From Candidatus Moraniibacteriota bacterium (lineage in GTDB: Bacteria; Patescibacteriota; Minisyncoccia; Moranbacterales; UBA1568), in contig JAYVWV010000035.1 in assembly GCA_043785755.1 (NCBI GenBank), positions 1 to 51,472 of the forward strand: a stretch of 51,472 bases of DNA, given 5' to 3'. The notes beneath the pieces are model-generated. The model was not told the origin of the DNA and made no database searches. It saw only the letters and a list, made by a program, of their open reading frames with translations. Position numbers and translations under genes: made by a program. Shown in pieces: positions 1,980 through 51,472 of this stretch (its first letter is position 1; every line of letters starts with the position of its first letter).

Positions 1980-2017
1980 GGTGCTTTTTAGTATACCACA
2001 TAGGATTTCTCTGGGGG

Positions 2018-2046
2018 TTGACACAATTTCAGTTATTCCACATAAT
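2018..2046 (+). promoter_or_regulatory. Sigma70-type promoter TTGACA-17 nt-CATAAT
   Basis: ttgaca at 2018-2023, 17-nt spacer, cataat at 2041-2046. This lies about 118 nt upstream of the ATG at 2171. Confidence 0.6.
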
Positions 2047-2170
2047 GGCTTGGTTGGTCCTGTTACCTCAGTCGACCTTTGGGTGTCCACCGGACACTTC
2101 AAGAAACACTGTCCTGACAAGATCAATCTTTTATTTTCACAGTCCCTTCAACAACAGTCGAGGAAGAAAA

Positions 2171-5829: not shown

Positions 5830-8211
5830 TTAGGCCTGCCATTTATCACGGGTGGCCTGATCAGCCGTCGGATCATCGCCGTACTGCGGTGCTTCTTCCG
5901 TGACCGTCGTATTCTCCGGCGTCTTGGCAATCAGGACTTTTTTCTTGCCATCCACCATCCCGATCACGCCACTCTCTTCCAAAAGGTGCATGAGGCGGGC
6001 AGCCCGTGGATAGCCGATACCGAAGGTTGTCTGGAGATTGGTAGTCGAAGCCCGACCCGTCTGGATAATGAGGTGCTTCACTTCTTCATACAGATCATCA
6101 GACTTCCCACCATCATCAATCGCGTCCATAGCGGCCATGATCCCATCAGGCGCGCCGCTCTCACCGAAGTCCTCACCGATCTCATCATCGCCGAGATCCT
6201 GTTTCTGCTTTTCGAGGAACGTCGTGACTCGCTTGATCTCATCGTCTGAGACAAACACTCCCTGAATTCGACGGATTTCCTTGCCATCGGCCGCCGAATA
6301 GAGCATGTCCCCATTGCCCAAAAGCTTCTCGGCCCCACCAGTATCGAGAATGGTGCGCGAATCGATCTGTGATTTGAGTTGAAAGGAAACACGAGCCGGG
6401 ATGTTGGCCTTGATGAGTCCAGTGATCACCGTCGCCTCCGGCCGCTGAGTAGCCAGGACCAAATGGATACCGACTGCCCGCGACAACGAAGCCAAGCGGA
6501 CAATGAGCACTTCGACATCCTTACCATGCGTGGCCATCAGGTCAGCCATTTCATCCATCATAATGACGACGTAGGGCATGGGCGGAAAAAATTCTTTGGT
6601 CACCCGACCCGTCTCGGCATCGACAATCGTACGCTTCTCACCGCGTGTCAGGAGCTCATGATACCCGGCGATGTCCTGCACCCGGGCCTCTTCCAAAATC
6701 TTGTAGCGATGATCCATCTGGCCAGTTGCCCAGCGCAGAACGTTAATCACCTTTTTATTTTCCACGATGACGTCGGTCTTCAAGTGTGGGATACCGCGGT
6801 AGCGCGAGAATGAAACACGCTTCGGATCGATCAGGATAAGTTGCAAATCATCGGGCGAGTTCTGATAGAGAAGCGAAAGGAGAAAGGTATTCATGCACAC
6901 GCTCTTCCCGGAACCAGTGCGCCCGGCAATCAGAATATGGGGCATCTTGGCCAAATCGGCGAGCACGTACTTCCCAGAAACATCCTCACCCAAAACCACC
7001 ATGAGCGATGACTGACGATGACGGAAGGCATTACTCTCGAGCACGGCCTTGAGACGAACCGTCGCCACCGACTGATTCGGGACCTCGATACCGATGAGCG
7101 CTTGTCCCGGGATGGGCGCTTCGATACGCACGCTCTTGGCAGCCAGGGCTAGTGCCAAGTCGTTATTGAGTGTGGTGATACGAGACAGCTTGACGCCGTA
7201 GGCAGGACGAAACGTATACTGGGTGACCGTCGGGCCCACTTGGACTGCTCCTGGCTCCACATCGATCCCGAAATGTTTGAGGGTACTCTGAATGATGTGC
7301 TTGTTCCGTTCGGTATCACCACCAGCCGCCACCCCGGTCGTCGATTCCAAGAGGTCCACCGGAGGCAATTCCCACTTGTGACTGCGCCGGGCGAGCGATT
7401 GTCTGGGACGGATATAGGCTGGGACCAAAACAGTCTCTTCCTCACTTTTCATATCGGCAGAAGGTAACACTTCCTCACCGGCGAAGGCAATCTTGCGGAT
7501 ATTGTTCTCTTCCAAACCATCCGGAACCACCGGCGCAGGCGCAGACGCTCCCGAAGCTTCCTCTCCGGTAGTTACTGCTATCACCTCATCGGCCAAGGGC
7601 GAGGAGAGGAGCGCTGGATTTCCTTCCACCGGCAGAACCTCCCCTTCTTTTTTCTGTAAACGTTCCACCAGTTTTTCGAAAGTCTGAACAAGTGACACGT
7701 TGAAAGCCGCGATCATCCCCACGGTAAAAAGTGTTAGGGCGATAATCGTCCCAGCGATCTTGCCGGTAAAGTTCCCCAAAACATAGGCGAAGGCGAAACC
7801 GACGTACCCACCTCCTCGGCCATGCTCGGCGACATTCAAAAGTTCCTTGGTCGTCGTACCGCTATAGAGATGGATGAGACCGAGCAGAGCGAGAAATCCC
7901 ACGACCAGACCGATGAACTTCACGGCATCCGCCAGGGTGGTGGTCCGCCGACGCAGAAACATGAGTGCCGCAGTCAAAAGAACGAGTGGTAAGAGCCACT
8001 TCCCAAAACCCAAAAAGAGCCCCAATCCCCGGTCGAACCATTGGCCCAAGACTCCGGCGGCATTGAAAAATCCCAGGAGAAAGAGAATAGCCAAGGCAAA
8101 CAAAAAAACCGCCACGATGCTCCTCTTAGCATCACTGTGGAGAATCTCACCCCAGTGGAAGCCCTCTGCATCAACCTCGTCCGCCGCGACCGCCTTTTTC
8201 TTTCTGCCCAT
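5830..8211 (-). CDS. ftsK: DNA translocase FtsK/SpoIIIE
   Basis: N-terminal TM helices, GRTGSGKS Walker A, VVIMMDEMADLM Walker B, and a C-terminal gamma wHTH (RASTTNLQTTFGIGYPRAARLM). Start at ATG 8211 (MGRKKK). Confidence 0.95.
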   Translation of the reverse strand: MGRKKKAVAADEVDAEGFHWGEILHSDAKRSIVAVFLFALAILFLLGFFNAAGVLGQWFDRGLGLFLGFGKWLLPLVLLTAALMFLRRRTTTLADAVKFIGLVVGFLALLGLIHLYSGTTTKELLNVAEHGRGGGYVGFAFAYVLGNFTGKIAGTIIALTLFTVGMIAAFNVSLVQTFEKLVERLQKKEGEVLPVEGNPALLSSPLADEVIAVTTGEEASGASAPAPVVPDGLEENNIRKIAFAGEEVLPSADMKSEEETVLVPAYIRPRQSLARRSHKWELPPVDLLESTTGVAAGGDTERNKHIIQSTLKHFGIDVEPGAVQVGPTVTQYTFRPAYGVKLSRITTLNNDLALALAAKSVRIEAPIPGQALIGIEVPNQSVATVRLKAVLESNAFRHRQSSLMVVLGEDVSGKYVLADLAKMPHILIAGRTGSGKSVCMNTFLLSLLYQNSPDDLQLILIDPKRVSFSRYRGIPHLKTDVIVENKKVINVLRWATGQMDHRYKILEEARVQDIAGYHELLTRGEKRTIVDAETGRVTKEFFPPMPYVVIMMDEMADLMATHGKDVEVLIVRLASLSRAVGIHLVLATQRPEATVITGLIKANIPARVSFQLKSQIDSRTILDTGGAEKLLGNGDMLYSAADGKEIRRIQGVFVSDDEIKRVTTFLEKQKQDLGDDEIGEDFGESGAPDGIMAAMDAIDDGGKSDDLYEEVKHLIIQTGRASTTNLQTTFGIGYPRAARLMHLLEESGVIGMVDGKKKVLIAKTPENTTVTEEAPQYGDDPTADQATRDKWQA

Positions 8212-8241
8212 ATTTTTGGTATCAGTACGATATATAGTGGC

Positions 8242-8271
8242 AGTATAGCACAAAGAAACGCTCCTGTTCAA
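8242..8271 (-). promoter_or_regulatory. Promoter TTGAAC-18 nt-(TGc)TATACT upstream of ftsK
   Basis: Minus strand reads tcttTTGAACaggagcgtttctttgTGcTATACTg, an extended -10. Confidence 0.55.
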
Positions 8272-8357
8272 AAGAAAAACCCGAAAAAACCGGGCTCCCT
8301 CAAGCCTACGCTCATCCACACAAAGAGGAGACAGTGTATAGAAAAAGAGAACACGTT

Positions 8358-16989: not shown

Positions 16990-17638
16990 TCAATCCCATA
17001 CTCCCATCTCATTTGTCCAGTTTGATTTCCTTCGACTGAAGAACAATAGGCAAAGAAAAAAGCTACCGGGTCGAAACCAAATAGCCTGGCATGCGGGGAT
17101 CCCGCGGGTAACGCAACAGGGCCAGCTCGAAACCATTCTGTCCTCTGGCTCGACTTCCCTCATTGACCCAGAGCCAGCGCACAGCCGAGCAAAGCGCTCG
17201 ATGATGGGCTGCCACTCCGGTTCCTCCTGGTACTGCGACGCCTGAGGAAGGAGAGAAACCTGCTCGGCCAGCGTCCTCACACTCCCGCCAGCCCAAGGTA
17301 CCGTGGCCCGATGGACAACATAGGTGTTCCGGGAGACCGTCACACTGACAGTGGCGACGTCACCATTCCTCGATGGTTCTCTCCGTTCCGCCCGGACCTC
17401 AAACACGGTCCTCTGCCAACTCCACCACCCGGTTGACCATTTCCTGATCAGCAGCACAGGCTTTGACATGGATCTGTGAAAAAACATCTTGCCCTCCTGT
17501 TATGATCGGCTTGTGAATTGGAAAAAAACCATTGAAAACCAGCTTCTCAAAATTAAGACCGGGGGTCAAGAGAAAGCTTGCCTGATTGATAGCGGCGCGC
17601 AGGAATCTCCTTTCCTTCTTTACCATCTCTGTACTCAA
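16990..17638 (-). other. Unresolved coding potential: two overlapping reading frames that could be joined by a 1-nt shift near 17400
   Basis: ORFs 17399..17638 and 16990..17487. The first ends ...VVELAEDRV-stop at gtgttTGA. The second reads through the same bases as ...TVFEVRAERREPSRNGDVATVSVTV..., and a terminator directly follows the stop at 16990. Confidence 0.3.
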
Positions 17639-19358
17639 CTTCTAATCCCACCCGCTCTTCTTGTCGTTTCAAGGAAAGAGAGCGTAAACAAGCAGGGGTG
17701 CCGGGCCCCACGACCGTCAGATCTCCGATGCGCGAGAGCATCTCCGCCACTCCATTGTCACCACCGGTGGAACAGGAATTGAGAACGATGACGGCCTCTT
17801 TGATGAAAAAGGTGCGCAGTTCCTCGTAGGCAGCCCCTTTAATTTCTCTTTTTTCTATCGCCCGTCTCGCTTTTTCACCAAACACAATCTTCTCGGTATT
17901 GCCATGCCCACCCACGACTGCAAAAGAAATTTTCTGCTTTACTCCATAACGCCGATTGAGGCGGATCAGTTTTTTGGCCGCATCCAAAACACTCTCACAT
18001 TCAAAGATCCGCACAGCCATCCCCTCTTGCTCAACATTTTCGCCGAATTCTTGGAATATGTCGTCATCTCCATAAAAGCCCCCATTCCAATCTTCTCGAG
18101 GATTAAGCACGATACCATAGGGCACATCAGCTTCGGTCAACTCCAGCTGCCTCAACAAAAGCTTCTTGGGATAACGAGCAAACGTCAGAATCCCATTTTC
18201 TCGCGACAGCGTTTCCGCAGAACCGGCCGCCGCTCTTTCGAGCATAACAGCAGCCGCTATATTCTGGACATAATTGTCCTGGCGCCGGTACTGCTCTTCT
18301 CGCTCACTTGCCTTCTTATCCTTCTTCTTCTTTTCACTCGCTACTTTGTCAGCATCGTACAGTCGAGCAGGGTCCAGCCCCAGCTGCCGCACCAAAGAAT
18401 CCAAAATGAATCTCTTTCTCTCTGTATCCTTTTTCGACGAAAACCTATAAGACTCGATGATCTTGCGAAGTGTCGTTTCATCAGTTCCCGATAGGAGGGC
18501 CTTATACCACACTTCTTGAGCAGCTCTCTGCTCTTCCACACTGCCATCGACAAGCAATGGGCGGAGAATCTCTGCATAGCTCCCAAAAAGCTGTTCACAT
18601 GAAGAATTCTTCTCTGCCTGAGAGACCTTTTCTCTCACCGTCGAAAAAAAAGAACGCGCCAGTGTGAGCGCTTCTGCCGGCTGCCGCCCATGCCGCACAG
18701 CGCTGGCCACAGTCTTAGCAAAGGGCAGTGCCTGTTCGTCCGACACACAGCCTCTCAAAGATTCCTCCCAAAAAGCACTGTGCGCTGATAATACTCGTGT
18801 CCCCATAGCGCACAATCCCTGTGATGTGCGAGCAACATGAGAGTAACTTCCATTGATAGTCGGGTCGTCATCAATATCATTCATGAGGCGTGTCAGAATT
18901 TGCACGGCCTCAGCCTGTGTCTCCGGCTGATCCAGAGCTAGAGACAGGTCGTTTTCCAACCACCGTATCGAATACCGTGCGATCTTTTCGGAAAATCCAT
19001 CAACGGGATCTTGGATCAAGTCCTGAAAAACACCTTTGAACTCCTGCCAAAAACCCCGGGGCCGTGGACCAGCAGGTCTCCGAAAAATACCAAGCAAAGT
19101 GTCGAGGTGTCGCTCTATTTTTTGAAGCGCTGCGTTGGAATGTTCTTCCACTGAAAATGGCTGTGCTGCTTCGCGTGGAGCTACTGGCGCTTGTAGGCGG
19201 GCCAGAATCAACGCTGCCTCTTCGTGGGCGGCCACTTGCGATCTGGCCAGCGCCTGAGAGTCTGCCCCCGGCATCCGTTCACGTACCATAGAGTCATCAC
19301 TCTCCCGTACAACCGGCTGGGCCAGTTCCTTACTTCTCAAGTGTTCCGGATAAGGCAT
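17553..19358 (-). CDS. Large hypothetical protein (601 aa) with a helical N-terminal region and a C-terminal domain carrying a caspase/CHAT-like His...Cys signature
   Basis: ATG 19358 lies 3 nt after the amidase stop. The C-terminus contains ISFAVVGGHGNTEKIVFG and AVIVLNSCSTGGDNG (beta-strand-HG and beta-strand-C-x-[ST]-G). No signal peptide was seen. Confidence 0.6.
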   Translation of the reverse strand: MPYPEHLRSKELAQPVVRESDDSMVRERMPGADSQALARSQVAAHEEAALILARLQAPVAPREAAQPFSVEEHSNAALQKIERHLDTLLGIFRRPAGPRPRGFWQEFKGVFQDLIQDPVDGFSEKIARYSIRWLENDLSLALDQPETQAEAVQILTRLMNDIDDDPTINGSYSHVARTSQGLCAMGTRVLSAHSAFWEESLRGCVSDEQALPFAKTVASAVRHGRQPAEALTLARSFFSTVREKVSQAEKNSSCEQLFGSYAEILRPLLVDGSVEEQRAAQEVWYKALLSGTDETTLRKIIESYRFSSKKDTERKRFILDSLVRQLGLDPARLYDADKVASEKKKKDKKASEREEQYRRQDNYVQNIAAAVMLERAAAGSAETLSRENGILTFARYPKKLLLRQLELTEADVPYGIVLNPREDWNGGFYGDDDIFQEFGENVEQEGMAVRIFECESVLDAAKKLIRLNRRYGVKQKISFAVVGGHGNTEKIVFGEKARRAIEKREIKGAAYEELRTFFIKEAVIVLNSCSTGGDNGVAEMLSRIGDLTVVGPGTPACLRSLSLKRQEERVGLEVEYRDGKEGKEIPARRYQSGKLSLDPRS

Positions 19359-19361
19359 ATG

Positions 19362-20108
19362 CTACTTCAGTTTCTTCCAATCGAAGTTCCAGGGGTCGGT
19401 CTTGCGGCCAGGGGCGATGTCGCTGTGACCGACGATATTCTTGATGGTGTATCCCTTCTTCAACTGCGCTATAAGAGCATTGACCGCCACATATTGAGCA
19501 CTGGTACATTCGGTCGTTTCCTTGTTCATGAGCTCGATGCCAATAGAAAAATCGTTGACGTTGGTGCGCCCGTCCGGCATCTTGCTCGCCCCGGCATGAT
19601 AGGCAATGTTCTGATCCTTTACCAAACGGTATATGGTCCCGCCACGGTCAATCAGATAGTGCGCACTGACGCCGTAGCCTTCATAAATCTTGACCAGTGC
19701 CTCGACAGAATAGGGATCCTTGCCATTGGGATCATAGGATGAATGAATGGCGATGGTATCGATGATACGGTCCTTGGTCGGTACCGCGAAACCGCTCCCC
19801 ATCAAACGATCGATGATCTTCAGAGCGGTTAGCGGCGTCTCTTTTTTCGTCGTGTCCACCACTGGCACTTCTGGTCCCGCCCCTTCCTGGAGGAGCGCTG
19901 CTGCTTCTTTGGCACTTTCTTCAGCAGCACTCTTCGCCGTGTTCGCCTTCTCTTTCATCGTCTCGTAAGCCGCCAATCCTTGGGCCGCTAGCACAGGCGC
20001 GGGCGCATCATTGGTAACCGTCAGCGTCGTTCCGGCTGTACCAAAATAAAAGTACCCCGCTCCGAGGACCATGATGACCACCGTCAATAATAATCCGATT
20101 ACTCCCAT
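19362..20108 (-). CDS. Membrane-anchored N-acetylmuramoyl-L-alanine amidase (Amidase_2/PGRP type)
   Basis: N-terminal TM helix, then IDTIAIHSSY, NIAYHAG, NDFSIGIEL, GHSDIAPGRKTDPWNFDW. Confidence 0.85.
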   Translation of the reverse strand: MGVIGLLLTVVIMVLGAGYFYFGTAGTTLTVTNDAPAPVLAAQGLAAYETMKEKANTAKSAAEESAKEAAALLQEGAGPEVPVVDTTKKETPLTALKIIDRLMGSGFAVPTKDRIIDTIAIHSSYDPNGKDPYSVEALVKIYEGYGVSAHYLIDRGGTIYRLVKDQNIAYHAGASKMPDGRTNVNDFSIGIELMNKETTECTSAQYVAVNALIAQLKKGYTIKNIVGHSDIAPGRKTDPWNFDWKKLK

Positions 20109-20854: not shown

Positions 20855-20883
20855 ATTATAGCATGTCTTAGCCTTGTTCCCAA
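20855..20883 (-). promoter_or_regulatory. Promoter TTGGGA-17 nt-(TGc)TATAAT, overlapping a plus-strand TGgTATCAT element
   Basis: Plus strand 20847-20864 atggtatcattatagcat is a near-palindrome that carries extended -10 elements on both strands. Confidence 0.5.
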
Positions 20884-20897
20884 GATTCTTCTGCACT

Positions 20898-22931
20898 ATG
20901 CAGCTTGTTTCTCTCTCGCACTCCATTCCGTTTCTTTTCCCCCTTGTTTTGGGCGCTTTTCTTTTGCTCTTTCCCCACCATGGTGTTCTGGCCGCCGCCA
21001 CCGCATCCGGTCAGATTATGCTGAGCGAAATCCAGATTACCGGCGGTACCAAGGCAACGAAAGATGAGTTCGTAGAGCTCTACAACCCAAGTACATCACC
21101 GGTCAATATCAGCGACTGGGAACTGCGCAAAAAAACCAGAGGTGATAACTCTCCTACTGGAACACTTTTTCATAAATTCCTCCCCGTCGCTTGCGTATTG
21201 CCTGCCGGAAGCGCCCTGACCGACACCATCCCGGCTCACGGGTACCTGCTCTGGACGAATAAGGACGGCAACGCCCCTTTCACCCCGCTCTTCGACGTGC
21301 AGAGCGGTAACAAGGAATCACCGAGTCTGGCTGAGAGTAACGGCCTGGCACTCTTCGATAACAGAAAGCAACTCATCGATAGCGTCACTTGGGACGTTTG
21401 CCCAGCGACAGCTAAGGGTAACACGACGTGCTTCCCGAAAGAAAACGCCTTCCTCGGAGCATATCTCGAGCAAGGGACCACGAAGTGGAACGCCATTATC
21501 CGAGATCCCGCGGCGGATACCTGGCGTATCTCGACTGTCCCGACCCCGCAGAATACCGGCCAAAAAGTATGTCCGGAAACGCCACCGCCTCCCACCCCGG
21601 TCAAAGTCTCTGTCCGTTTCAATGAAATCCTGGCCAACCCAGTAGGTGACGAAACCGCTGGGGAATTTATCGAGCTCTATAACAATGACACCACGGCCGA
21701 TATCAGTGGCTTCGTTATTCATGATGCCTCCAAAACCGGGAGCTACACCTTCCCCGCCAACACCACTCTCGCCAGTCATGCATACTATGTTTTGGAGCGC
21801 GCTGTCTCCAAGCTCTCTCTCAACAACACTAATGAAACACTGACCCTCTCCGACGCTGCCGGAACAATCATCGACACCGTGCAGTATCAAACAAGCAAAG
21901 AAGGAGTGTCGTTCAACTTCACCGGCAGCAGCTGGCGCGGTGGCACACCGACTCCCGGCACCGCCAATCAGTTAAACTCTCTCCCCGAAACCAACGAGAG
22001 GGTACCGAAAGACGGTTATCGTGGCGTTGCCGTCTCGTTCAATGCCCGAGGTGATGATACTGATAACGACCAGCTCAAATACACCTGGGATTTCGGTGAT
22101 GGTCACAAGAGCTACCAAGAAGAAACCACCCACACCTACGAAGACACGGGTACCTATACGGTCACGCTCACCACGAGTGATGGCAAGGACGACACGGTAG
22201 AAACATTCTCCATCAAGATAGAACCCCTCCCTGAAAAAAAAGTGCGCATCGTTTCCTTCGTCCCCAACCCGAGTGGTAAGGATAGTGACGGGGAATACCT
22301 CATCATCGAGAATCGCGAGAAGAAACCCGTCAACCTAAAAGACTACGGCATCGCCACCGGTTGGAAGAAACTTTCCAATCATCCCGTGCGTGAAAGCTTC
22401 ATCATCGCCGGCAAGTCACAAGCCAAGATGACCCGGGAATTTTCCCTCTTCACTCTCCCCAACCAAAAGGGTCGCATCGAGCTGCGCGCGCCCGATGGCG
22501 AAGTACTGCAAAAAATTACATACGAACTCGATCGACCGATCGCCGAAGACGCCCTGTACTTCAAAGAAAAAGGCAGTGGCTGGCAGTGGCAAGAAAAAGA
22601 AAGCTCGCCCGGTCGCTCGGTCACCGAAACGCCGACTGTGCCATCAATCCCCGAAGTAGCCACCCTCCCGGAATCATTACCCCCCGCACCGAAAACGTCA
22701 CCAGAAGAAGTCGCCCCAACCCCACCGGAACCAAAAAAACTTTCGCTCTTGCCGCTCTTAAACTACGGCACCGCTGTCACTCTGCCAGAAAACATACAAC
22801 TCTCCTTCGATGACTCTCTGATACAAACATCCTCATCGCAAAAGAGAGAGCACTATGCTCTCGCCTTCGCCAAAGAAGTCTTGGCCGAAATCAACACCAC
22901 GCTCAATAGTATGCAGAATAGGGACAAATGA
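20898..22931 (+). CDS. Secreted surface protein with three lamin-tail (LTD) domains and one PKD domain
   Basis: Start ATG 20898 (signal-like MQLVSLSHSIPFLFPLVLGAFLLLF). LTD signatures: LSEIQITGG..DEFVELYNPS..ISDWEL; VRFNEILANPVGDETAGEFIELYNN; VSFVPNPSGKDSDGEYLIIEN. PKD signature: YTWDFGDGHKS...THTYEDTGTYTVTLTTSDG. Confidence 0.85.
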   Translation: MQLVSLSHSIPFLFPLVLGAFLLLFPHHGVLAAATASGQIMLSEIQITGGTKATKDEFVELYNPSTSPVNISDWELRKKTRGDNSPTGTLFHKFLPVACVLPAGSALTDTIPAHGYLLWTNKDGNAPFTPLFDVQSGNKESPSLAESNGLALFDNRKQLIDSVTWDVCPATAKGNTTCFPKENAFLGAYLEQGTTKWNAIIRDPAADTWRISTVPTPQNTGQKVCPETPPPPTPVKVSVRFNEILANPVGDETAGEFIELYNNDTTADISGFVIHDASKTGSYTFPANTTLASHAYYVLERAVSKLSLNNTNETLTLSDAAGTIIDTVQYQTSKEGVSFNFTGSSWRGGTPTPGTANQLNSLPETNERVPKDGYRGVAVSFNARGDDTDNDQLKYTWDFGDGHKSYQEETTHTYEDTGTYTVTLTTSDGKDDTVETFSIKIEPLPEKKVRIVSFVPNPSGKDSDGEYLIIENREKKPVNLKDYGIATGWKKLSNHPVRESFIIAGKSQAKMTREFSLFTLPNQKGRIELRAPDGEVLQKITYELDRPIAEDALYFKEKGSGWQWQEKESSPGRSVTETPTVPSIPEVATLPESLPPAPKTSPEEVAPTPPEPKKLSLLPLLNYGTAVTLPENIQLSFDDSLIQTSSSQKREHYALAFAKEVLAEINTTLNSMQNRDK

Positions 22932-26521: not shown

Positions 26522-26588
26522 ACTGAAACTTTTAGGGAAGTTTACCCGCCTTTGGCGGAGTCATGCACTACCAATATACTCGTCTCGC
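26522..26588 (-). pseudogene. Degenerate tRNA-like element (tRNA-Gly-like, GCC at the anticodon position), 2 nt upstream of tRNA-Gly(CCC)
   Basis: GCGAGACGAGTATATTGGTAGTGCATGACTCCGCCAAAGGCGGGTAAACTTCCCTAAAAGTTTCAGT. The first 30 nt are about 80% identical to the neighbouring tRNA. Position 33 is C rather than U, the T-arm has 3 bp with no TTCGA loop, and the acceptor stem pairs 5 of 7. Confidence 0.5.
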
Positions 26589-26604
26589 TTCCCCAAGCAG
26601 AGCC

Positions 26605-26633
26605 ATTGTAGCGCATATCCGGAACAGGAGCAA
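26605..26633 (-). promoter_or_regulatory. Promoter TTGCTC-17 nt-TACAAT upstream of the tRNA-like/tRNA-Gly pair
   Basis: Minus strand reads TTGCTCctgttccggatatgcgcTACAATggctctg. The hexamer ends 16 nt before the tRNA-like 5' end. Confidence 0.5.
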
Positions 26634-26694
26634 TGGTAGACAAGACGCTCATTTTCTGGTACGCTGTGAAAGTATAAATTTCTTTTTTCATCTC

Positions 26695-28104
26695 ATGTTC
26701 TCTTTCTTCACTAGAGGACGCATCATCGCGCTTGCCATCATTTCACTCCTCTTAATCAGTGGCATCTCCGTCTTTTTCTTTGCCAAAACGCACAAGGCTG
26801 AATTCGCTACTGGTTCACTCAATCTCTTCCAAAAAGTCTCCAAGCTCCTGCCACTGGCACCCGACACCAAAAAGGAGATTGATGTGGTGAGCGCCCTAGT
26901 CGGTGAACTGACCAAACAGGATAATCAGATACGGACCTTCCTCGTTCTCCTCCAGAACGCTGATGAACTGCGGCCTGGTGGTGGTTTCCTCGGTCAGTAC
27001 GCCATCATCAAGATCAAAAATGGCGCCGTACTCTCAACTTTTGTTGAGGATGCCAACCTCCTTGATCAGCGCATCAGCGCCAAAATTACCCCGCCCTATC
27101 CGTTCGTTAAGAAAATGCAGCTCCGTAACTGGAAATTCCGCGACTCCAACTTCTCCCCCGACTTTCCTACCAACGCTGAGAAGGCTCAGTACTTCTACCG
27201 CCTGGCGGGCGGTCGCGAGAAGTTCGATGGGGTCATTGCCATCAACTCACTCGTCTTCAATAACATCTTGGCCATCTCCGGCCCCATCCAGATCCCGGGC
27301 GATAGCAATACCTACACCAGTACCGATGGCGCTTACAAATTGGAAGACCGGGTAGAACGGGTCTACCTCGGGGAAGATGTCCCGGCGGAACTGAAGCAAG
27401 CCCGCAAAACCATCATGAAACGCCTCGCGACAGAGATCATGAGCCGGGTGGCCACCGTCCAAAACATCCCCAAGCTGGCTGAATTCACCCAAAACGAACT
27501 GCGTAACCGAGACATCATGCTCTATTTCGCCGATGCCAAACTCCAGGATCTGGTGAAGAGCGTCCACTGGGACGGGGCGGTCCAGACCGACTGGAATAAT
27601 GACTACCTGGCTCTGGTCGACGCTAACATGGGGGCGCTCAAGACCGACTACTACATCAAGCGCTCACTCGACTACACCGTCGACTTCACAGACGAAAAGC
27701 CAACCGCCACCATCCTCTACACTTACCAACACACCGCCACGCACGGCGACTGGCGCACCAGTGACTACCATACCTATCTGCGCGCTTATGTCCCGCAGGG
27801 TTCCAAACTCATTGAACGCAAACTGGTCGGTCCGCCACTCACCGATGAGGCCTTCGGTAAAACCTACTTTGGCGTCTCCGTCGACGTTTTGATCGGTGGC
27901 GAAACCATAGGGATGATCAAATACGAGCTGCCCGACACTATCACGGCCGACAACTATCACCTCCTCATCCAGAAACAGTCCGGGGTCGGCACCCTGCCCG
28001 TCACCGTTCATATCAAGACGAAGGATGGCAACACCTATAATCAAACGGCTGACCTTCAAAAAGACCTCAACTTCTCGATAGAGCAGGTGGACGAGAAGAG
28101 GTAA
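26695..28104 (+). CDS. DUF4012-domain membrane-anchored protein
   Basis: Start ATG 26695 (MFSFFTRGRIIALAIISLLLISGISVFFF). LLQNADELRPGGGFLGQYAIIKIKNG is typical of DUF4012. Confidence 0.75.
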   Translation: MFSFFTRGRIIALAIISLLLISGISVFFFAKTHKAEFATGSLNLFQKVSKLLPLAPDTKKEIDVVSALVGELTKQDNQIRTFLVLLQNADELRPGGGFLGQYAIIKIKNGAVLSTFVEDANLLDQRISAKITPPYPFVKKMQLRNWKFRDSNFSPDFPTNAEKAQYFYRLAGGREKFDGVIAINSLVFNNILAISGPIQIPGDSNTYTSTDGAYKLEDRVERVYLGEDVPAELKQARKTIMKRLATEIMSRVATVQNIPKLAEFTQNELRNRDIMLYFADAKLQDLVKSVHWDGAVQTDWNNDYLALVDANMGALKTDYYIKRSLDYTVDFTDEKPTATILYTYQHTATHGDWRTSDYHTYLRAYVPQGSKLIERKLVGPPLTDEAFGKTYFGVSVDVLIGGETIGMIKYELPDTITADNYHLLIQKQSGVGTLPVTVHIKTKDGNTYNQTADLQKDLNFSIEQVDEKR

Positions 28105-45269: not shown

Positions 45270-45851
45270 TTATGGAAGGCCAAACGACTTTCTTAGTCTT
45301 GCATCGTCTTCGACCCTCTCCACTGTCATATAGAGAAGCTCCCCACCCAAATGACACTCGGCTTTCAAAAGCGCTACCAGCTCTTCGCACTGGTAGGGGT
45401 ACACCCAGACGCTGTCCTGGAGTCTCAGGAATCCAAATCGGAAAATACTTTTCCTTATCTGATCCCTTCTGCCTCTTTTCGTTTCACAAATATCGAAAAT
45501 AACCACCCGCCACTTCCCGTCCCAGCGTTGTTTCTTCTGCCCTGACTCCTTGAGCTTGTGTTTCAAAAGCTCACGTTCTCCCTTTTCGGTGAGTTTTGCG
45601 ATCAAAATACCACCCTCCCGATACGTCGTGATCAATCCTCTTTTCTGCAGCCTTCCGACCATTCCCGCCACATACGTCGGCGTGCGATAGCGACGCTTTT
45701 GCCGAACGAAAGGCGCGATCGCTTTCATCACCCCAGGGACCACTGCTACCAGCGGGACGACGCCGAGCACAGCGATAAAAGCGAGAGCTGTCTTTACAAG
45801 CTCAATCTGTTTCTTCCTGTTTTTTTCGTCTTTATTTTCCTCTTGCGACAT
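45270..45851 (-). CDS. Membrane-anchored wHTH protein with a PaaX_C/Cas2-fold C-terminal domain (PaaX-like regulator)
   Basis: Start ATG 45851 (MSQEENKD). TM helix ALAFIAVLGVVPLVAVVPGV, wHTH-like MVGRLQKRGLITTYREGG..LTEKGERE, then WDGKWRVVIFDICETKRGRRDQIRKSIFRFGFLRLQDSVWVYP. Confidence 0.55.
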   Translation of the reverse strand: MSQEENKDEKNRKKQIELVKTALAFIAVLGVVPLVAVVPGVMKAIAPFVRQKRRYRTPTYVAGMVGRLQKRGLITTYREGGILIAKLTEKGERELLKHKLKESGQKKQRWDGKWRVVIFDICETKRGRRDQIRKSIFRFGFLRLQDSVWVYPYQCEELVALLKAECHLGGELLYMTVERVEDDARLRKSFGLP

Positions 45852-46074
45852 ACTCGAGTTACTCGCCTCATTGAACCAGAGCTTATTGAGCAAAGACAGA
45901 GTATTTCTATTTCTTTCCCTCTGCACACAGTATAGCACGACCGTTACCTTGTGTGTGCAGTGAAAAGAACGGGCGAGGAAAGAAAGTAGATATGTATAAA
46001 AGTGCTGTTTTTCTTCTTATATAAGCCATTTCTTGTGCTTATGCACCTCAAGAGTAGTATTTGGCCGCTTTCCA

Positions 46075-46214: not shown

Positions 46215-47201
46215 ATGGCCCTCGGAAGCATTGCCGAAATCTTGGCCGACCTCGGCCTCACCTCTGCGTTTATTTCTCAGTTCTTGAGAAAGCCAGTTCC
46301 GCCCGGCACACCACCTGCCGCGGCTCCCGCTGCCAAAATCGAGGATCCGCTCAAGCAGCAGGTAGCGTCGGTGAATCCGTTGGCGCGTGACGACAAGGCG
46401 ATTCTCATCGCTGTCGACACCGCCCTGGCGCAGCTCTCAGGTGGTGCAGATCACCTGGCGAGCGTGATCCAGGTACGGGTAGCGCTCAAGGGACATCAGC
46501 GGACCGATTGGCGCAAAAACCTCACTTCGCTGACCCTGACCGAGCGGTTCAAAGAGGTACGGGTCTGGAGGACCATTACCAAATTTGAACAACTCGGCGA
46601 TCCGCTCCAACAGCCAGCAGCCGCACAACCGCGGCGGCGAGGCAACCAACAGGGCGGTCAACAGGACCCACTGCCAGGCACAGAGAAGACGGAGCATAAG
46701 TTCGAACGCCTACCCCTCGACTATGAATGGACGGCGGATGACCCTCGGGTCAAACACCTGATACTCGTGTCCGAGCTGGTAAAGAGCCAGGCAGTAGCGG
46801 GAGCCATCGCCTACCTCATCTCGGCTGGCTTCATTCAAGAGAAGTCTGTCGACGAAATAACCGCGGAATGGGCGGCGGCGGCTGGCACGAAAGTGGCCGG
46901 CGGCGCCTACCACGCGGCAGCAAAACTGGTGCTCGATCGTGACACGAACGAGCACCTCCGAAGCCTCCCCGAGGGTGATGCGCGTGAGCAAGAGCTGTCA
47001 AACGCTCTTGACCAGGGCCTTGTTGCCATCACGCAGGAGACTGAGGACCTGAAGAAAGCTCCGCTCCCGAAGTGGTTCAAGATCGCCATGGGTGCGGGGA
47101 CGACATTCCTGCTCATCCTGTGGCTGCCCTGGATCTTTAGCTTAGTGGGTGGTGCAATCGCACTACTCGGTACCGCCATCTGGTGGTTCAAATTTCACTG
47201 A
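46215..47201 (+). CDS. Hypothetical protein with Pro/Ala- and Gln-rich linkers and a C-terminal double TM anchor
   Basis: SD aaggag at 46203-08. 328 aa ending FKIAMGAGTTFLLILWLPWIFSLVGGAIALLGTAIWWFKFH. No family was recognised. Confidence 0.7.
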   Translation: MALGSIAEILADLGLTSAFISQFLRKPVPPGTPPAAAPAAKIEDPLKQQVASVNPLARDDKAILIAVDTALAQLSGGADHLASVIQVRVALKGHQRTDWRKNLTSLTLTERFKEVRVWRTITKFEQLGDPLQQPAAAQPRRRGNQQGGQQDPLPGTEKTEHKFERLPLDYEWTADDPRVKHLILVSELVKSQAVAGAIAYLISAGFIQEKSVDEITAEWAAAAGTKVAGGAYHAAAKLVLDRDTNEHLRSLPEGDAREQELSNALDQGLVAITQETEDLKKAPLPKWFKIAMGAGTTFLLILWLPWIFSLVGGAIALLGTAIWWFKFH

Positions 47202-47215
47202 TCAAGGAGATTGGC

Positions 47216-48400
47216 ATGGCAGTCGAAAGAAACACTGATGCCGAACTGGGCATCATCAAGAGTCGGCTGGAGGCCAAGGCGCACACCATCAGGAAGTGGT
47301 ACTTCCTAGGCTTCTGCTCGGTGGTGGCCTCGGCGTTGGTCTTGGTGAGTGTGGGAGCCGCGTTCAACACGGCAGGATATGCGATTGTGAACTTCGTGTT
47401 CGCCGCCGCTTTCCTGATCGTCTGGGCATACTTCACCCATCACCCCTGGGGAATCCTGGGGGCAGCCACCGTAGGAGTCGCCGATGGACTCCCGAAGGAC
47501 TGGAGTATCAATCGGTTGAAGGAGCTTTTGTCTGAGGGCGGGAAACCGTTCCCAGACTTAAGCCTCAGCAACATCGCCGATGAAGCCTGGAAGTGGATCG
47601 GGCGTTACGTCCGTATGTCGGCGCAACTGGCCTACTTCGTGACGGTGGTCTTTGTCGTCATGGGGACGTTTCACATCAAGAACCCCTACGCGATCCTCCC
47701 GATCTTCATCGTCCTGGCAGGACTTCTCATGTGGCTGGTCTTCAAAGGCTCGCCTCTCAAGTGGTACCCGCGCATCACCTCGCTCATTCTGTTCGTGTCC
47801 CTCTCCGTGTTTGTCTACAAGGCATTCGTCGGTGAGCCGCAACATGATGAACCGACGGGCGGTGTGGTGATACCGAGTCCGCAAGCCATAGCCAGCGGGG
47901 TCACCAATGTCCTCAACGGTTTCACTTCTGCCCGATGGGTGGTGGTCGACGAGTTCGACTGCGAACTTGGTTTGAAGTCTTGGCAGCAAAGCCAGGGCGT
48001 CTGCCAGAGCGTGGCCGTAGACAAAGACGGACGCTACCGTCTGGCCATCAAGTCACACAAGATGACTCTGGCCCGGGAACGAGACAAGACCGGCGGCGGT
48101 GGTATCGAGCAATTGGTCCTTCGCCCGGAAGGGATTTTCCTCGCCTACTGGAGCGGAAACCCAGACGCGGTGAGGGAGTTACGCCGACAAGCACCCTTCA
48201 ATGAGCACGTCGGTGCCATCATCGCCAGAGCTGGTCAGGCCGGCCGGTGGGCACTGGCATTCTCGCAAGAGGTGCGAGCGCCGGAGTTCGAGCTGAAGAA
48301 GGGACAGGTCATCCAGGCCAGCCTCAACCTCCCTCCGAGGAAGGATTGGTTTGATGACAACACGGGCCACTACAGCCTGGAAATAGAACGGCTGGAATAG
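47216..48400 (+). CDS. Polytopic membrane protein with a C-terminal beta-rich domain resembling the LecA/PA-IL lectin fold (tentative)
   Basis: SD aaggag at 47203-08 and ATG 47216. About 5 TM helices. The C-terminus ...HVGAIIARAGQAGRW...KKGQVIQASLNLPPRKDWFDDNTGHYSLEIERLE compares with LecA ...[13 protein letters not shown]...[28 protein letters not shown]. Confidence 0.7.
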   Translation: MAVERNTDAELGIIKSRLEAKAHTIRKWYFLGFCSVVASALVLVSVGAAFNTAGYAIVNFVFAAAFLIVWAYFTHHPWGILGAATVGVADGLPKDWSINRLKELLSEGGKPFPDLSLSNIADEAWKWIGRYVRMSAQLAYFVTVVFVVMGTFHIKNPYAILPIFIVLAGLLMWLVFKGSPLKWYPRITSLILFVSLSVFVYKAFVGEPQHDEPTGGVVIPSPQAIASGVTNVLNGFTSARWVVVDEFDCELGLKSWQQSQGVCQSVAVDKDGRYRLAIKSHKMTLARERDKTGGGGIEQLVLRPEGIFLAYWSGNPDAVRELRRQAPFNEHVGAIIARAGQAGRWALAFSQEVRAPEFELKKGQVIQASLNLPPRKDWFDDNTGHYSLEIERLE

Positions 48401-48483: not shown

Positions 48484-49119
48484 CTATGGCGTGAAAAACG
48501 TAGCGATCTGCGTGACGATAATCAGCGCGGAAAAAGCGATAGCGATACCGATGATGGAATAAGTAACAATCTTCTTCCCCGTTTCGGCCCGATTCTCGTC
48601 GCCGGCCGCCGTCAGATAGGCCAAGCCGCCGATAACCAGCATGATAAGCGCGATGACGCCCAAGATAGAAAGGAAGAATTCTAATACCTTGGTGGCAATC
48701 TGAGTGAAAGTCGTCGCACCCGCCACAGTGCCAGTAGCGTCGACGATGTTGTTCCAACCGAGGATCGTGGCGATTTCTTTGAGGAACGATGGTGCCGCCA
48801 AACCGAGGGCGAGTCCGATGAGGGCCGCCACGATAGCACTTTTGGCCAAAGTCATCCGACTATCGTTGCCAGCCGAGGTGATATAGAGGAGAGCACCAAT
48901 GATAATAAAGATGATGGCCAAGATGACGATAATCTTCTGAAGCTGGAGCAGTGCCTCACCAAGGACACCCCCTATAGAATTGAACTTAAGCGGATTAATG
49001 TACATATCAGGGCCCCCACTCGAACCCGCAGCCAATGTCAATTCAGGCGTCAACGCCAAGAGACCGCCAAAAAAAACGAAGCCCATCAAAACCACCGTAT
49101 TTCTTTTTAGAATTTGCAT
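48484..49119 (-). CDS. Double-module TrbC/VirB2-like (T4SS-pilin-type) membrane protein
   Basis: Start ATG 49119. The two modules are ...IIGALLYITSAGNDSRMTLAKSAIVAALIGLALGL... and ...VIGGLAYLTAAGDENRAETGKKIVTYSIIGIAIAF... Confidence 0.7.
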   Translation of the reverse strand: MQILKRNTVVLMGFVFFGGLLALTPELTLAAGSSGGPDMYINPLKFNSIGGVLGEALLQLQKIIVILAIIFIIIGALLYITSAGNDSRMTLAKSAIVAALIGLALGLAAPSFLKEIATILGWNNIVDATGTVAGATTFTQIATKVLEFFLSILGVIALIMLVIGGLAYLTAAGDENRAETGKKIVTYSIIGIAIAFSALIIVTQIATFFTP

Positions 49120-49124
49120 AGCGT

Positions 49125-49760
49125 TTATGAGGAGAAGAATCCTGCGACCCAAGAAACAATGACGAGTGCTGCTAAAGCGATAGCAATCCCGATGATAGAG
49201 TAGGTGACGATTTTCTTACCCGTTTCGGCCCGGCTCTCATCCCCAGCGGCAGTCAAGTACATGAGTCCACCGATGATCATCATGATGATACCGATGACGC
49301 CGATGACCGAGAGGAGAAAGTCGAGCACCCCTCTCACGATTTCGACCAGTGACTTGGCGCCGGCAGCCGCAGCACTATCGGTGGCGCCCCAGCCCAAGAT
49401 ATCACCAATCTGTTTGAGAAACGACGGTGCCGCCAAACCGAGGGCCAAGCCCACCATCGCCGCAGTGATGGCACCCTTGCCGAGCGCCAGGCGATTTTCG
49501 TTGCCAGCCGAGGTGATGTAGAAAAAGGCCCCGATGACGATAAAGATGAGCGAGAGGATGACGATAAGCCCCTGTAACCAACCAAGGAGTGACCCAAGTA
49601 CTTCTTGAACCGTATTAAAATCAAGAGGATTCTTGACATCAACAATAGTATCGCCGCCAGACCCCGCCCCATGAGCCACCAACACCACGAAAAAGAACAT
49701 CATGAGACCCATCAGTATCACCCCCCCAACAGCAACGCCTCTCTGCCGACCGCTCGTCAT
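49125..49760 (-). CDS. Double-module TrbC/VirB2-like membrane protein, paralog of 48484-49119
   Basis: Start ATG 49760. The two modules are ...VIGAFFYITSAGNENRLALGKGAITAAMVGLALGL... and ...IIGGLMYLTAAGDESRAETGKKIVTYSIIGIAIAL... Confidence 0.7.
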   Translation of the reverse strand: MTSGRQRGVAVGGVILMGLMMFFFVVLVAHGAGSGGDTIVDVKNPLDFNTVQEVLGSLLGWLQGLIVILSLIFIVIGAFFYITSAGNENRLALGKGAITAAMVGLALGLAAPSFLKQIGDILGWGATDSAAAAGAKSLVEIVRGVLDFLLSVIGVIGIIMMIIGGLMYLTAAGDESRAETGKKIVTYSIIGIAIALAALVIVSWVAGFFSS

Positions 49761-49770
49761 AACAAAAGCA

Positions 49771-50163
49771 TTAGAAATTGGAAGAGGTGGCTTTGAGAGC
49801 CGTGTTGACTGCTTGAATGACGATGAAGCCTGAAAGAGCCACGATGATACCAATGATGGAATACTTCATGTTGGTCTTAGCTGTCTCGGCGGTCTTCTCA
49901 TCACCGGCTGACAGGAGATACTGCATACCAGAAATGACAAAGGCCATAATACCAATGACGCCGAGGATACCCAGGAGCCACGACATGAGATTACTCAGAA
50001 TACCAGAGACAGGGGCCGAGGACAGTCCAGTATTGGTCGGGATACAGACACCTGTGCTCCCATCATAGTTGGCCGGACAGGGCACCGCCTGCGCCGTCGT
50101 CACCAACGCGGTCAGCAAAAAAAAGGAAGCGGCCAAGGAGTAAAATAAACGCTTCATCTTCAT
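49771..50163 (-). CDS. Single-module TrbC/VirB2-like pilin-type protein
   Basis: Start ATG 50163 (MKMKRLFYSLAASFFLLTALVTTAQA signal peptide). The mature end VPCPANYDGSTGVCIP has a Cys pair. Module: VISGMQYLLSAGDEKTAETAKTNMKYSIIGIIVAL. Confidence 0.7.
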   Translation of the reverse strand: MKMKRLFYSLAASFFLLTALVTTAQAVPCPANYDGSTGVCIPTNTGLSSAPVSGILSNLMSWLLGILGVIGIMAFVISGMQYLLSAGDEKTAETAKTNMKYSIIGIIVALSGFIVIQAVNTALKATSSNF

Positions 50164-50218
50164 AAGGGAGATTACTATTTGTATTAGACTGCCGGAGGGC
50201 AGCACGGACTCACACGTG

Positions 50219-50231
50219 CCTCCATGATAGC
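50219..50231 (-). promoter_or_regulatory. Conserved 13-mer GCTATCATGGAGG (minus strand), a candidate -10 region, copy 1
   Basis: Minus strand reads TTGTTT-17 nt-TATCATgg, about 25 nt after the preceding terminator and 55 nt upstream of ATG 50163. Confidence 0.45.
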
Positions 50232-50259
50232 TTTTTTCGAGCGAAAAAACAACTGCATC

Positions 50260-50290
50260 GAAAACAAAAAGCCACCCGCCACGCGGATGG
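50260..50290 (-). terminator. Rho-independent terminator after gene 50310-50684
   Basis: Minus strand CCAUCCGC-gug-GCGGGUGG followed by CUUUUUGUUUUC. Confidence 0.7.
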
Positions 50291-50309
50291 TTTTTGAAAA
50301 TACCAAAAA

Positions 50310-50684
50310 TCAGAAGCCAGCATTGTTCCCCTGAAGCCACGAGTTGACAGCCTGGATGACGACAAAGCCAAGTAGAGCGACAACGACTCCGATGATAGAG
50401 TACTTCATCGCTTCCTTGGCCTGTTCAGCCCGTTTCTCATCTCCCGCCGCGGTGAGATAGAGAATGCCGGAAATGACGAAACCAATGATGCCAAGAAAAC
50501 CGAGGAGGCCCAACAGCCAGTCCATGGTGTACCACACGATATCCGTGAGCGTACCCTGCGGGACACCGGAAGCTTGGGCACGGTTATACCCGGTAGTCCA
50601 CGGGTCCACAGCAAATACCGTAAGTGGGGTCAAAGCCAAACCAGTAGCCGCTACTCCGTACAAAACGTTTTTTATTTTATTCAT
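50310..50684 (-). CDS. Single-module TrbC/VirB2-like pilin-type protein
   Basis: SD ggaggtg 7 nt upstream of the ATG. Signal peptide MNKIKNVLYGVAATGLALTPLTVFA. Module: VISGILYLTAAGDEKRAEQAKEAMKYSIIGVVVAL. Confidence 0.75.
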   Translation of the reverse strand: MNKIKNVLYGVAATGLALTPLTVFAVDPWTTGYNRAQASGVPQGTLTDIVWYTMDWLLGLLGFLGIIGFVISGILYLTAAGDEKRAEQAKEAMKYSIIGVVVALLGFVVIQAVNSWLQGNNAGF

Positions 50685-50782
50685 ATCTTCTCACCTCCTT
50701 TCTTTTAAAACTTTTCTTTTTAGCTCAGCTTCTTCGTTGCACTCAGAGTGACACACTGCTTCATTGCACCAACAACATTACT

Positions 50783-50795
50783 CCTCCATGATAGC
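50783..50795 (-). promoter_or_regulatory. Conserved 13-mer GCTATCATGGAGG, copy 2
   Basis: Identical 13-mer located just after terminator 50806-50838 and 99 nt upstream of ATG 50684. Confidence 0.4.
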
Positions 50796-50805
50796 GCTTT
50801 TCACT

Positions 50806-50838
50806 CCAAAACAAAAGCCACTCGACGAAACGAGTGGC
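50806..50838 (-). terminator. Rho-independent terminator after gene 50870-51238
   Basis: Minus strand GCCACUCG-uuucgu-CGAGUGGC followed by UUUUGUUUUGG. Confidence 0.7.
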
Positions 50839-50869
50839 TGCTTTGTCGATTGCTGTACATCTCCTCACA

Positions 50870-51238
50870 CTAGAATGTGGAGCTTGCGCCTCCGAGCCAG
50901 GTGTTGACGGCCTGGAGGATGACGTAACCCAGAAGAGCGACAACGACTCCGATGATGGAGTACATCATAGCCTTCTTGGCTCGATCGATCTGATCCTCGT
51001 CACCAGCTGCGGTGAGATAAAGGATACCAGCGATGACGAAACCGATAATACCGAGGAAACCGAGGAGAGCCAAAAGCCAGTTCATCGTCTGTCCGATAAT
51101 ATCAGTGATAGTCCCCTGCGGGGTACCACCCGTACCAGCATTGGTCACGCCCTTCCCCCACTGGGCCGAGGCGACGGCCGGTGCCAAAGCGATAGCCGCT
51201 CCAGCTGCACCATACAGAACGTTTTTAATTTTGTTCAT
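50870..51238 (-). CDS. Single-module TrbC/VirB2-like pilin-type protein
   Basis: Start ATG 51238 preceded by ggaggtg. Signal peptide MNKIKNVLYGAAGAAIALAPAVASA. Module: VIAGILYLTAAGDEDQIDRAKKAMMYSIIGVVVAL. Confidence 0.75.
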   Translation of the reverse strand: MNKIKNVLYGAAGAAIALAPAVASAQWGKGVTNAGTGGTPQGTITDIIGQTMNWLLALLGFLGIIGFVIAGILYLTAAGDEDQIDRAKKAMMYSIIGVVVALLGYVILQAVNTWLGGASSTF

Positions 51239-51319
51239 AGTTCTCACCTCCTTTCTTTTTTTCATGTCACTCCCTCACCAAAGAGACTAACGATGAATAT
51301 TTCTTTTTATGTTTCTGTT

Positions 51320-51472
51320 TTACGAAATGATTTGGGTCAGCGTCGTCACAATCACCAGTGCCCCCAACACAATCACCAAACCGATAACTGAAAAATAGGT
51401 GGCTCGTTTGGCGAGTTCTATTCGATGCTCATCGCCGGCGGCCGTGAGGTAGAGAAGACCGGCGACTACTAG
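51320..51472 (-). CDS. 3' end of a further TrbC/VirB2-like gene whose 5' part lies beyond the right edge (not in the ORF track)
   Basis: Own translation: LVVAGLLYLTAAGDEHRIELAKRATYFSVIGLVIVLGALVIVTTLTQIIS-stop (TAA at 51322-51320). Confidence 0.65.
   Translation of the reverse strand, partial: LVVAGLLYLTAAGDEHRIELAKRATYFSVIGLVIVLGALVIVTTLTQIIS

Follow-up and report, generated by a model that had tools for sequence, protein, structure and literature searches.

A tandem array of VirB2/TrbC-type pilin genes, two of them double-module, between bipA and nusA in a Moranbacteria genome

Results

The pilin array and its extent

The window studied here is one entire NCBI contig of 51,472 bp (JAYVWV010000035.1, from a Candidatus Moraniibacteriota bacterium), and the subject of this report is an array of tandem pilin-type genes that occupies positions 48484–51472 on its minus strand. 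A first-pass annotation had described at least six minus-strand genes here that encode the same module. The six minus-strand open reading frames (ORFs) are all present exactly where it placed them and all score above the threshold of the family PF18895 (T4SS_pilin), and the number of genes can now be raised. Logan contig L001 is 100% identical to the window over 11,163 bp and reaches 4,816 bp past the contig end (window position = 56289 minus L001 coordinate). Because L001 completes gene B (94 aa) and adds gene A upstream of it, the array in full consists of seven genes (A–G) with nine modules, and the window holds six-sevenths of it, its 3' part. The same array sequence was found in three independent assemblies. 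Past A, L001 carries bipA/typA, a solute-binding protein gene, and a methyltransferase gene, so that the array is flanked by housekeeping genes, with bipA on one side and nusA on the other.

Gene A (151 aa; L001 4225–4680) lies outside the window and matches PF18895 with 29.5 bits. The complete gene B (L001 4685–4969) reaches 39.4 bits with PF18895 and 30.2 bits with PF04956 (TrbC/VirB2); the part within the window (51320–51472, 30.5 bits) is its 3' portion, and the gene runs 132 nt past the contig end. Genes C (122 aa; 50870–51238, 45.2 bits) and D (124 aa; 50310–50684, 46.4 bits) are single-module pilins of one type, here called C-type. Gene E (130 aa; 49771–50163, 42.4 bits) is also a single-module pilin; it has two cysteines within its N-terminal outer segment, and its counterpart in relatives is the fourth gene of the array (49%–61% identity). 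The array closes with two 211-aa paralogues that each match PF18895 in two stretches, the double-module VirB2-type pilins F (49125–49760, 63.6 bits) and G (48484–49119, 66.8 bits); in G an alternative start at 49086 would give a protein of 200 aa. A hidden Markov model built from the nine modules found no further copies in any frame of the window, and Rfam and tRNA scans gave no match in the array region.

Family membership and predicted fold

Profile comparison places the array genes among the VirB2/TrbC-type pilins, in a family (PF18895) typical of the Candidate Phyla Radiation/Patescibacteria, in agreement with the family assignment made at first from motifs. All six window genes exceed the PF18895 gathering score of 26.6 bits (E-values 2e-18 to 4e-7), and B also exceeds that of PF04956 (27.9 bits). 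The motif that had been described for the module, Y-L/I-T-A/S-A-G-D/N-E followed by K and Y-S-I-I-G, is visible in the module alignment, and parts of it are invariant among 52–60 homologues. With NF045849, the closest NCBIfam model, the five complete genes scored 33–40 bits and the fragment 22; the cut-off is 40, and on these scores, every one of which falls just under it, the genes are not members of that family. A reading of the genes as type IV pilins was rejected: there is no G/FxxxE prepilin motif, the leaders are ordinary, each module has two helices, and no array gene matched the Pfam pilin family (N_methyl) at E<=1.

Hydropathy indicates a common layout, with B possibly excepted, of an N-terminal hydrophobic leader, a short outer segment, and paired hydrophobic helices. 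Leader cleavage is predicted from A-x-A-like sites only, and the leader of B is short and atypical. The AlphaFold2 model of D (mean predicted confidence, pLDDT, 72) contains helices at residues 46–78 and 83–117 and a short helix at 29–38, and that of G, which begins with a predicted signal peptide, shows two hairpins (49–81/86–119 and 138–169/175–209; pLDDT 80.4).

Most pairs of modules within the array are 22%–49% identical. The exceptions are C/D (72%; 65% over the whole proteins), F1/G1 and F2/G2 (64% each), and D/E (56%). Judged by these identities, C/D and F/G are recent duplicate pairs, D being a lineage-specific duplicate of C.

Double-module pilins

As had been proposed, F and G each fuse two modules head to tail; the two PF18895 stretches in each protein, together with the two hairpins predicted for G, indicate that they are true double modules. 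The modules inside one double protein are 26%–27% identical, and F1 and F2 share 27% identity, whereas F1/G1 and F2/G2 each share 64%; the fusion thus long predates the duplication that produced F and G, which are themselves 55% identical over their full length. The fusions had been called unusual for pilins, and in this respect the earlier view needs revision, since they form a large conserved subfamily. The double-module profile retrieved at least 375 clusters at 50% identity (E<=1e-30). Among the best 150 of these, all match the full core of ~175 residues, and in nearly all the core stands at the C-terminus, preceded by highly variable N-terminal extensions of 0–830 residues. Similarly, the 211-aa protein has 473 homologues in a 90%-clustered database, with both modules at the C-terminus in 120 of the 120 homologues among the matches listed, and those with names are recorded as 'pilin' of Moranbacteria, Moraniibacteriota, or Minisyncoccota. 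Orthologues of F in three related loci (L003, L005, and L007) are 60%–65% identical, and several double-pilin homologues pass the PF04956 threshold (35.6 and 34.9 bits).

Some members found elsewhere are large, including P0245 (1005 aa), P0133 (911 aa), L035 676–3474 (932 aa), and others. Their N-terminal regions carry LamG_3, sulfatase, and SGSH_C domains in one example, and otherwise Cys-rich repeats or weak Sushi/defensin-like matches. In such proteins the predicted pilin pair anchors enzymes or adhesin-like domains to the membrane from the C-terminal end.

Expression signals and intergenic elements

A strong Shine-Dalgarno (SD) sequence stands in front of both C and D. The sequence AAGGAGGTGA precedes these two genes, alone among the genes of the array, and sits 7 nt before the ATG of C. 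Each of the two genes is also directly followed by a terminator-like hairpin and T-run on the minus strand: after D, 8 pairs (6 G-C) at 50272–50290 (L001 5999–6017), then CTTTTTGTTT; after C, 9 pairs (6 G-C) at 50816–50839 (L001 5450–5473), then TTTGTTTTGG. The hairpin after D falls within a longer alternative ORF of E. Both signals support the short starts that had been chosen earlier, AAGGAGGTGA for C and D and the hairpin for E. Just downstream of the D terminator, a conserved 34-nt element on the minus strand (50219–50252; GCTATCATGGAGG on the coding strand) belongs to a direct repeat family (D5) whose second copy lies downstream of the C terminator (50783–50816, minus strand). The two copies are 76% identical and read ...AAAAGC(G)CTATCATGGAGG on the coding strand. 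The element is a possible promoter of the next gene, E for the first copy and D for the second, and was probably duplicated along with the gene.

The same signals were counted by paralog type in 80 species loci (described below), with types assigned by best match to the window genes. Of 90 C-type genes, 56 have a strong SD in front of them, compared with 1/47 for A, 0/49 for B, 5/63 for E, 4/58 for F, and 4/31 for G. Terminator-like hairpins follow 51 of 90 C-type genes but 3/47 A, 1/49 B, and 3/63 E genes, and at the ends of the arrays they follow F in 22/58 cases and G in 5/31. The length of the C-type is fixed at ~121–124 aa. The combination of a strong SD and an own terminator suggests that the C-type, here C and D, is the candidate major subunit.

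Conservation of the locus in related genomes

Scanning of GTDB species genomes yielded 110 loci, of which 80 were kept, and these 80 carry the titles Moranbacteria, Moraniibacteriota, or Minisyncoccota. The array can be placed in this lineage because its homologues and syntenic loci are titled Moranbacteria or Moraniibacteriota. Many third-party-annotated metagenome-assembled genome (MAG) records that bear the array and its synteny are titled 'uncultured Bdellovibrionales bacterium' (L011, L014, L021, L022, L024, and others), which looks like mislabelling.

The bipA-array-nusA locus is repeated in many species. Across the 80 loci, arrays mostly contain 5–7 pilin ORFs that fall into five paralog types, A, B, C, E, and F, in the predominant order A-B-C-(C)-E-F/G, and a double-module gene comes last in 78. 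Each pilin gene has one orthologue, at the matching position, in three relatives; identities there are 45%–65% for the pilins, 86%–90% for BipA, and 55%–73% for two other neighbors. In several relatives the A-type gene is fused C-terminally to an SLT lytic transglycosylase, which would require the C-terminus of A-type pilins to be outside. Such fusions were seen at L003 7490–8566 and L083 5563–8052, as well as in L019, L024, L027, L040, L045, and L066, and the A-type protein of one relative combines an S8 peptidase, a pilin hairpin, and SLT. In the organism of the window, A has 151 aa and no SLT domain; an SLT_2 protein is encoded 46 kb away, at window positions 702–2126.

Variation between close strains

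Comparison of the window with a close strain (L009) gave synonymous divergence (dS) of 0.30–0.48 for D, E, and G, with ratios of nonsynonymous to synonymous divergence (dN/dS) of 0.09–0.18. DNA identity along the array is a mosaic. Gene F (49125–49760) is 98.6% identical to L009 971–1606, with a dS of 0.006, whereas dS is 0.30 for the adjacent E and 0.48 for G; this near-identity beside diverged neighbors suggests recent inter-strain recombination within the array. Amino-acid changes are clustered in the outer segment, from the leader to the first helix. Paralogue DNA within the array is 62%–76% identical, and neither long identical tracts nor inverted repeats, as a substrate for gene conversion or switching, were found in the array. 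The pattern read from these two sequences is consistent with hairpins under purifying selection, diversification that is local, and recombination between strains; it does not fit a switching system.

Secretion machinery and mobility

The first-pass annotation had seen no secretion machinery in the 51 kb, and Pfam searches of the ~37 window ORFs likewise found no VirB4, VirB6, VirD4, relaxase, or pilin peptidase. Type IV secretion system (T4SS) machinery is thus absent within 51 kb on one side of the array and 4.8 kb on the other, where L001 supplied the rightward extension and showed no canonical conjugative T4SS. The window matches are to rpoB, rpoC, ftsK, recA, nusA, pyrophosphatase, trigger factor, and clpP, and further to iPGM, RNase Y, cofD, a P-type ATPase, a class II tRNA synthetase, and others. 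The FtsK protein at 5830–8319 was considered as a coupling protein and rejected, as it has the full chromosomal FtsK architecture.

The sequences fetched around the 80 related loci, which extended up to 10 kb to either side, contained no VirB4-like ORF. Only two ORFs of at least 550 aa in these flanks have a strict Walker A motif, and both are of the PilB type (T2SSE + MshEN); the other large P-loop ORFs checked were BipA, IF2, or NusA. The PilB-type ATPases (L047 438–2210 and L086 1–2947) lie within 10 kb of the pilin array in two of the 80 species, which is probably chance proximity in compact genomes. Four of the five array-bearing Moranbacteria genomes in Table S1 of a recent survey (PMC12102498) are VirB4-positive there (GW2011_GWE2_35_2-, RIFCSPHIGHO2_01_FULL_54_31, RIFCSPLOWO2_12_FULL_48_12, and RIFCSPHIGHO2_01_FULL_55_24). 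In these four genomes the array lies among housekeeping genes with no VirB4 in its flanks; an upstream bipA and a downstream nusA were each confirmed in three of the four.

In G+C content at third codon positions (GC3), the pilin genes do not differ from neighboring genes, including bipA. Because there is no relaxase or integrase, GC3 is as in the neighbors, and synteny is conserved across species, these sequence features indicate that the array is not a mobile element.

Neighboring genes

Two plus-strand genes lie convergent to the array and immediately downstream of it. A 328-aa ORF (46215–47201) encodes a soluble protein with a C-terminal transmembrane (TM) anchor, and a 394-aa ORF (47216–48400; longest ORF from 47183) encodes an N-terminal domain with ~5 TM segments and a soluble C-terminal domain; neither has a Pfam match. 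Local G+C is 57%, compared with ~52% elsewhere. Between the two strains the two proteins are only 59% and 29% identical, whereas the flanking DNA is 93%–100% identical. Weak homologues, convergent and placed right after the double pilin, occur in at least 13 of the 80 species loci; a search of 5.8 billion proteins with the 394-aa ORF returned only itself and one close strain. The stretch between nusA and this variable pair holds a minus-strand gene (45270–45938) whose 222-aa product matches the PaaX central Cas2-like domain (PF20803) with 71.6 bits and Cas2 weakly; its DNA is 100% conserved between the two strains. Elsewhere in the window are further genes that are envelope-related or have no assigned function: a 601-aa minus-strand ORF with no Pfam match (17553–19358) adjoins an Amidase_2 gene (19362–20108), and plus-strand genes encode a 685-aa surface protein with three lamin-tail domains and a PKD domain (20874–22931) and a 513-aa DUF4012 protein (26563–28104).

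Discussion

Arrays of this kind were already described between 2023 and 2025, and the locus is no new kind of system. It had been supposed at first that multi-paralog arrays were experimentally uncharacterized; published work speaks against this. Using PF18895 and PF04956 on 3,035 Patescibacteria genomes, Quinonero-Coronel et al. (2025; PMC12102498) reported 441 arrays of 2–11 VirB2-like genes each in 383 assemblies, most abundantly in Microgenomatia and Saccharimonadia, with a mean paralogue identity of 25% and a maximum of 54%; pilins lay near virB4 in only 1,135 of 1,948 assemblies. Transposon sequencing (Tn-seq) by Wang et al. (2023; PMC10633639) found the six-pilin series in the T4SS cluster of Southlakia epibionticum ML1, the one species tested, to be essential for epibiotic growth. 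Further, a 2025 review discusses a possible pilus in the monoderm Patescibacteria lineage (PMC12857230), and the role of the T4SS-like system in Saccharibacteria has been called "completely unknown" (PMC11665869).

The seven tandem genes of our array agree with the definition used in PMC12102498 (at least two genes, tandem or separated by one gene), and their number is within the published 2–11. Like the arrays of S. epibionticum ML1 and N. lyticus TM7x, this one consists of tandem PF18895/PF04956 genes, chromosomal and divergent, with no relaxase. It differs from the ML1 array, which lies inside the T4SS cluster, in being placed between bipA and nusA and unlinked to virB4. It differs from the published arrays in coming from the Moranbacteria lineage (class Paceibacteria), in containing double-module pilins, and in exceeding the reported 54% identity maximum (C/D modules 72%, 65% over the whole proteins; F/G 55% whole). 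We found no mention of double-module pilins or of a conserved five-type layout in the literature searched on Patescibacteria pilin arrays, and these two features are the new detail with which the locus refines the described phenomenon.

The array proteins resemble canonical VirB2/TrbC/TraA pilins of diderm T4SSs, which are likewise small pre-proteins with a cleavable leader, two hydrophobic helices, and a short polar loop. In contrast to those systems, the lineage here is of monoderm type, there are seven paralogues rather than one, no virB3 or virB4 is adjacent, the A-G-D/N-E loop motif is specific to PF18895, no cyclizing or acetylating enzyme was seen, and the filament is a putative one. 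A different likeness is to Mbov_0395-family proteins of mycoplasma integrative and conjugative elements (ICEs; NF045849), since the hairpin aligns over nearly the whole 80-position model. In mycoplasmas, however, the protein comes from a lone gene within an ICE transfer module. The near-threshold scores hint at VirB2-like proteins in MPF-FATA-type systems of Tenericutes. Finally, other pili (type IV pili with pilA and minor pilins, or VirB2 with VirB5) share the arrangement of one small subunit with strong expression signals and its own terminator beside several weakly signalled paralogues, one with variable outer domains. The array proteins are, however, unrelated in sequence to type IV pilins, there is no VirB5 homologue, and the analogy would be functional only.

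We think it probable, though well short of certain, that the locus is an operon-like chromosomal array supplying a T4SS-like machine encoded elsewhere, with the types dividing the labor. Family membership, predicted topology, synteny, and expression signals come from sequence analysis. From them we infer filament formation, the major and minor roles, and a dependence on VirB4. Each product would be made with an N-terminal Sec-type signal sequence (predicted, and uncertain for B with its short N-terminus) and would insert as a helical hairpin, with the A-G-D/N-E loop presumably cytoplasmic and both ends presumably outside. The hairpins may then be subunits of a pilus-like or conduit part of a Patescibacteria T4SS-like machine whose VirB4/VirB3/VirB6-type core would have its genes at another place in the genome. 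The abundant major subunit would be the C-type, and A, B, and E would be low-copy minor subunits. The lytic transglycosylase on the A-type of relatives would open the cell wall, and the SLT fusion fits a VirB1-like role. The terminal double-module F/G may be a covalent pilin pseudo-dimer that anchors a variable outer domain and acts as an adaptor or tip. Contact or exchange with a host cell, and not conjugation, would most likely be the use of the whole.

Several observations weigh against this reading. No T4SS core gene was found in the 56 kb available from this genome, and the array-bearing but incomplete MAG GW2011_GWC2_37_8 is VirB4-negative in PMC12102498. No filament of these pilins in Patescibacteria is reported in the literature searched, and the pili visible in a cryo-electron tomography study of N. 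lyticus were assigned to type IV pili. The assignment of major and minor roles is built solely from SD sequences and terminators. Further, the predicted hairpin fold is generic: Foldseek searches of the PDB with both AlphaFold2 models, a method that discriminates short hairpins poorly, gave best E-values of 0.13 and 1.0, to generic helical hairpins or bundles. Neither Foldseek nor profile searches of PDB sequences with both alignments, which returned chance matches only, gave a significant match to solved T4SS pilins. The loop of canonical pilins is clearly basic, and the charge of the loop here is mixed and not clearly so.

A quite different way to account for seven paralogues is that they are interchangeable variants of one pilin that serve antigenic or host-range variation, as was proposed for the VirB2 paralogues of Bartonella and Anaplasma. 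Antigenic variation was also among the roles suggested for this array at first. The lineage-specific duplications (C/D modules 72%, F/G 55%), the clustering of strain differences in the outer segment between leader and first helix, the mosaic of DNA identity in which F with a dS of 0.006 stands beside values of 0.3–0.5, and the highly variable N-terminal extensions of the double pilins all speak for such a system, and the idea has been tentatively voiced for Patescibacteria arrays (PMC12102498). We nevertheless regard it as unlikely. It is a poor fit to conserved one-to-one orthology, in which five types keep mostly the same order across ~80 species; the types are unlike both in expression signals and in architecture, with SLT fusions on one and a double module in another; dN/dS is 0.09–0.18; paralogue DNA is 62%–76% identical and has no long identical tracts or inverted repeats; and three independent assemblies show no difference within the array.

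If the paralogues are not variants of one another, they could still be two-TM proteins that act in the membrane as a scaffold, channel, or enzyme anchor with no T4SS or pilus, in which case 'pilin' would denote distant ancestry. In favor of this are the lack of machinery in 56 kb and, in 80 species, in the available flanks of at most 10 kb to either side, the fold searches, whose matches were all generic helical hairpins (ATP synthase subunit c, for example), and the double-module and A-type proteins that often anchor large ectodomains or enzymes (sulfatase, SLT, S8 peptidase); moreover, no T4SS pilus is reported for Patescibacteria in the literature searched. Such a role seems to us distinctly improbable in view of the TrbC/VirB2 profile matches above threshold, the S. 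epibionticum pilin series inside an essential T4SS cluster (PMC10633639), and the pilins near virB4 in 1,135 assemblies (PMC12102498), and because the strong expression set-up of a small, ectodomain-free type fits a polymer subunit better than an anchor. That an ordinary plasmid or ICE begins here, a conjugative element with its transfer genes just past the contig end, could be imagined from a window that ends within the array and from a pilin family related to conjugative pilins, but it is hardly credible. L001 shows bipA, a solute-binding protein gene, and a methyltransferase gene past the array instead of transfer genes, the bipA-array-nusA locus is common to many species, and the window has no relaxase, integrase, or coupling protein, while GC3 equals that of the neighbors. 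On the flanking genes, GC3, and synteny, we rejected it as far as the present data reach.

Returning to the array as supplier of a machine encoded elsewhere, a more specific and doubtful, if possible, version is that the pilins form a complete heteromeric T4SS-type filament of a monoderm-like cell, with its genes kept apart from the motor. The double-module dimer would nucleate or cap this filament, display exchangeable outer domains, and determine the host with which the epibiont engages, the C-type would make up its bulk, and the A-type would open the wall. If this were true, the double-module protein would be a modular tip-display subunit (for adhesins, sulfatase, or Cys-rich repeats) that functionally replaces VirB5.

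The similarity to NF045849 bears on the published question of whether Patescibacteria pilins were co-opted from another T4SS class. For the lineage itself, the lack of machinery beside such arrays is normal and not the sign of an orphan system. The comparative picture turns "many divergent pilins" into specific roles that can be tested, through the five-type order, the one high-expression type, the fused double pilin with its ectodomains, the peptidoglycan-lytic fusions, and the separation from virB4.

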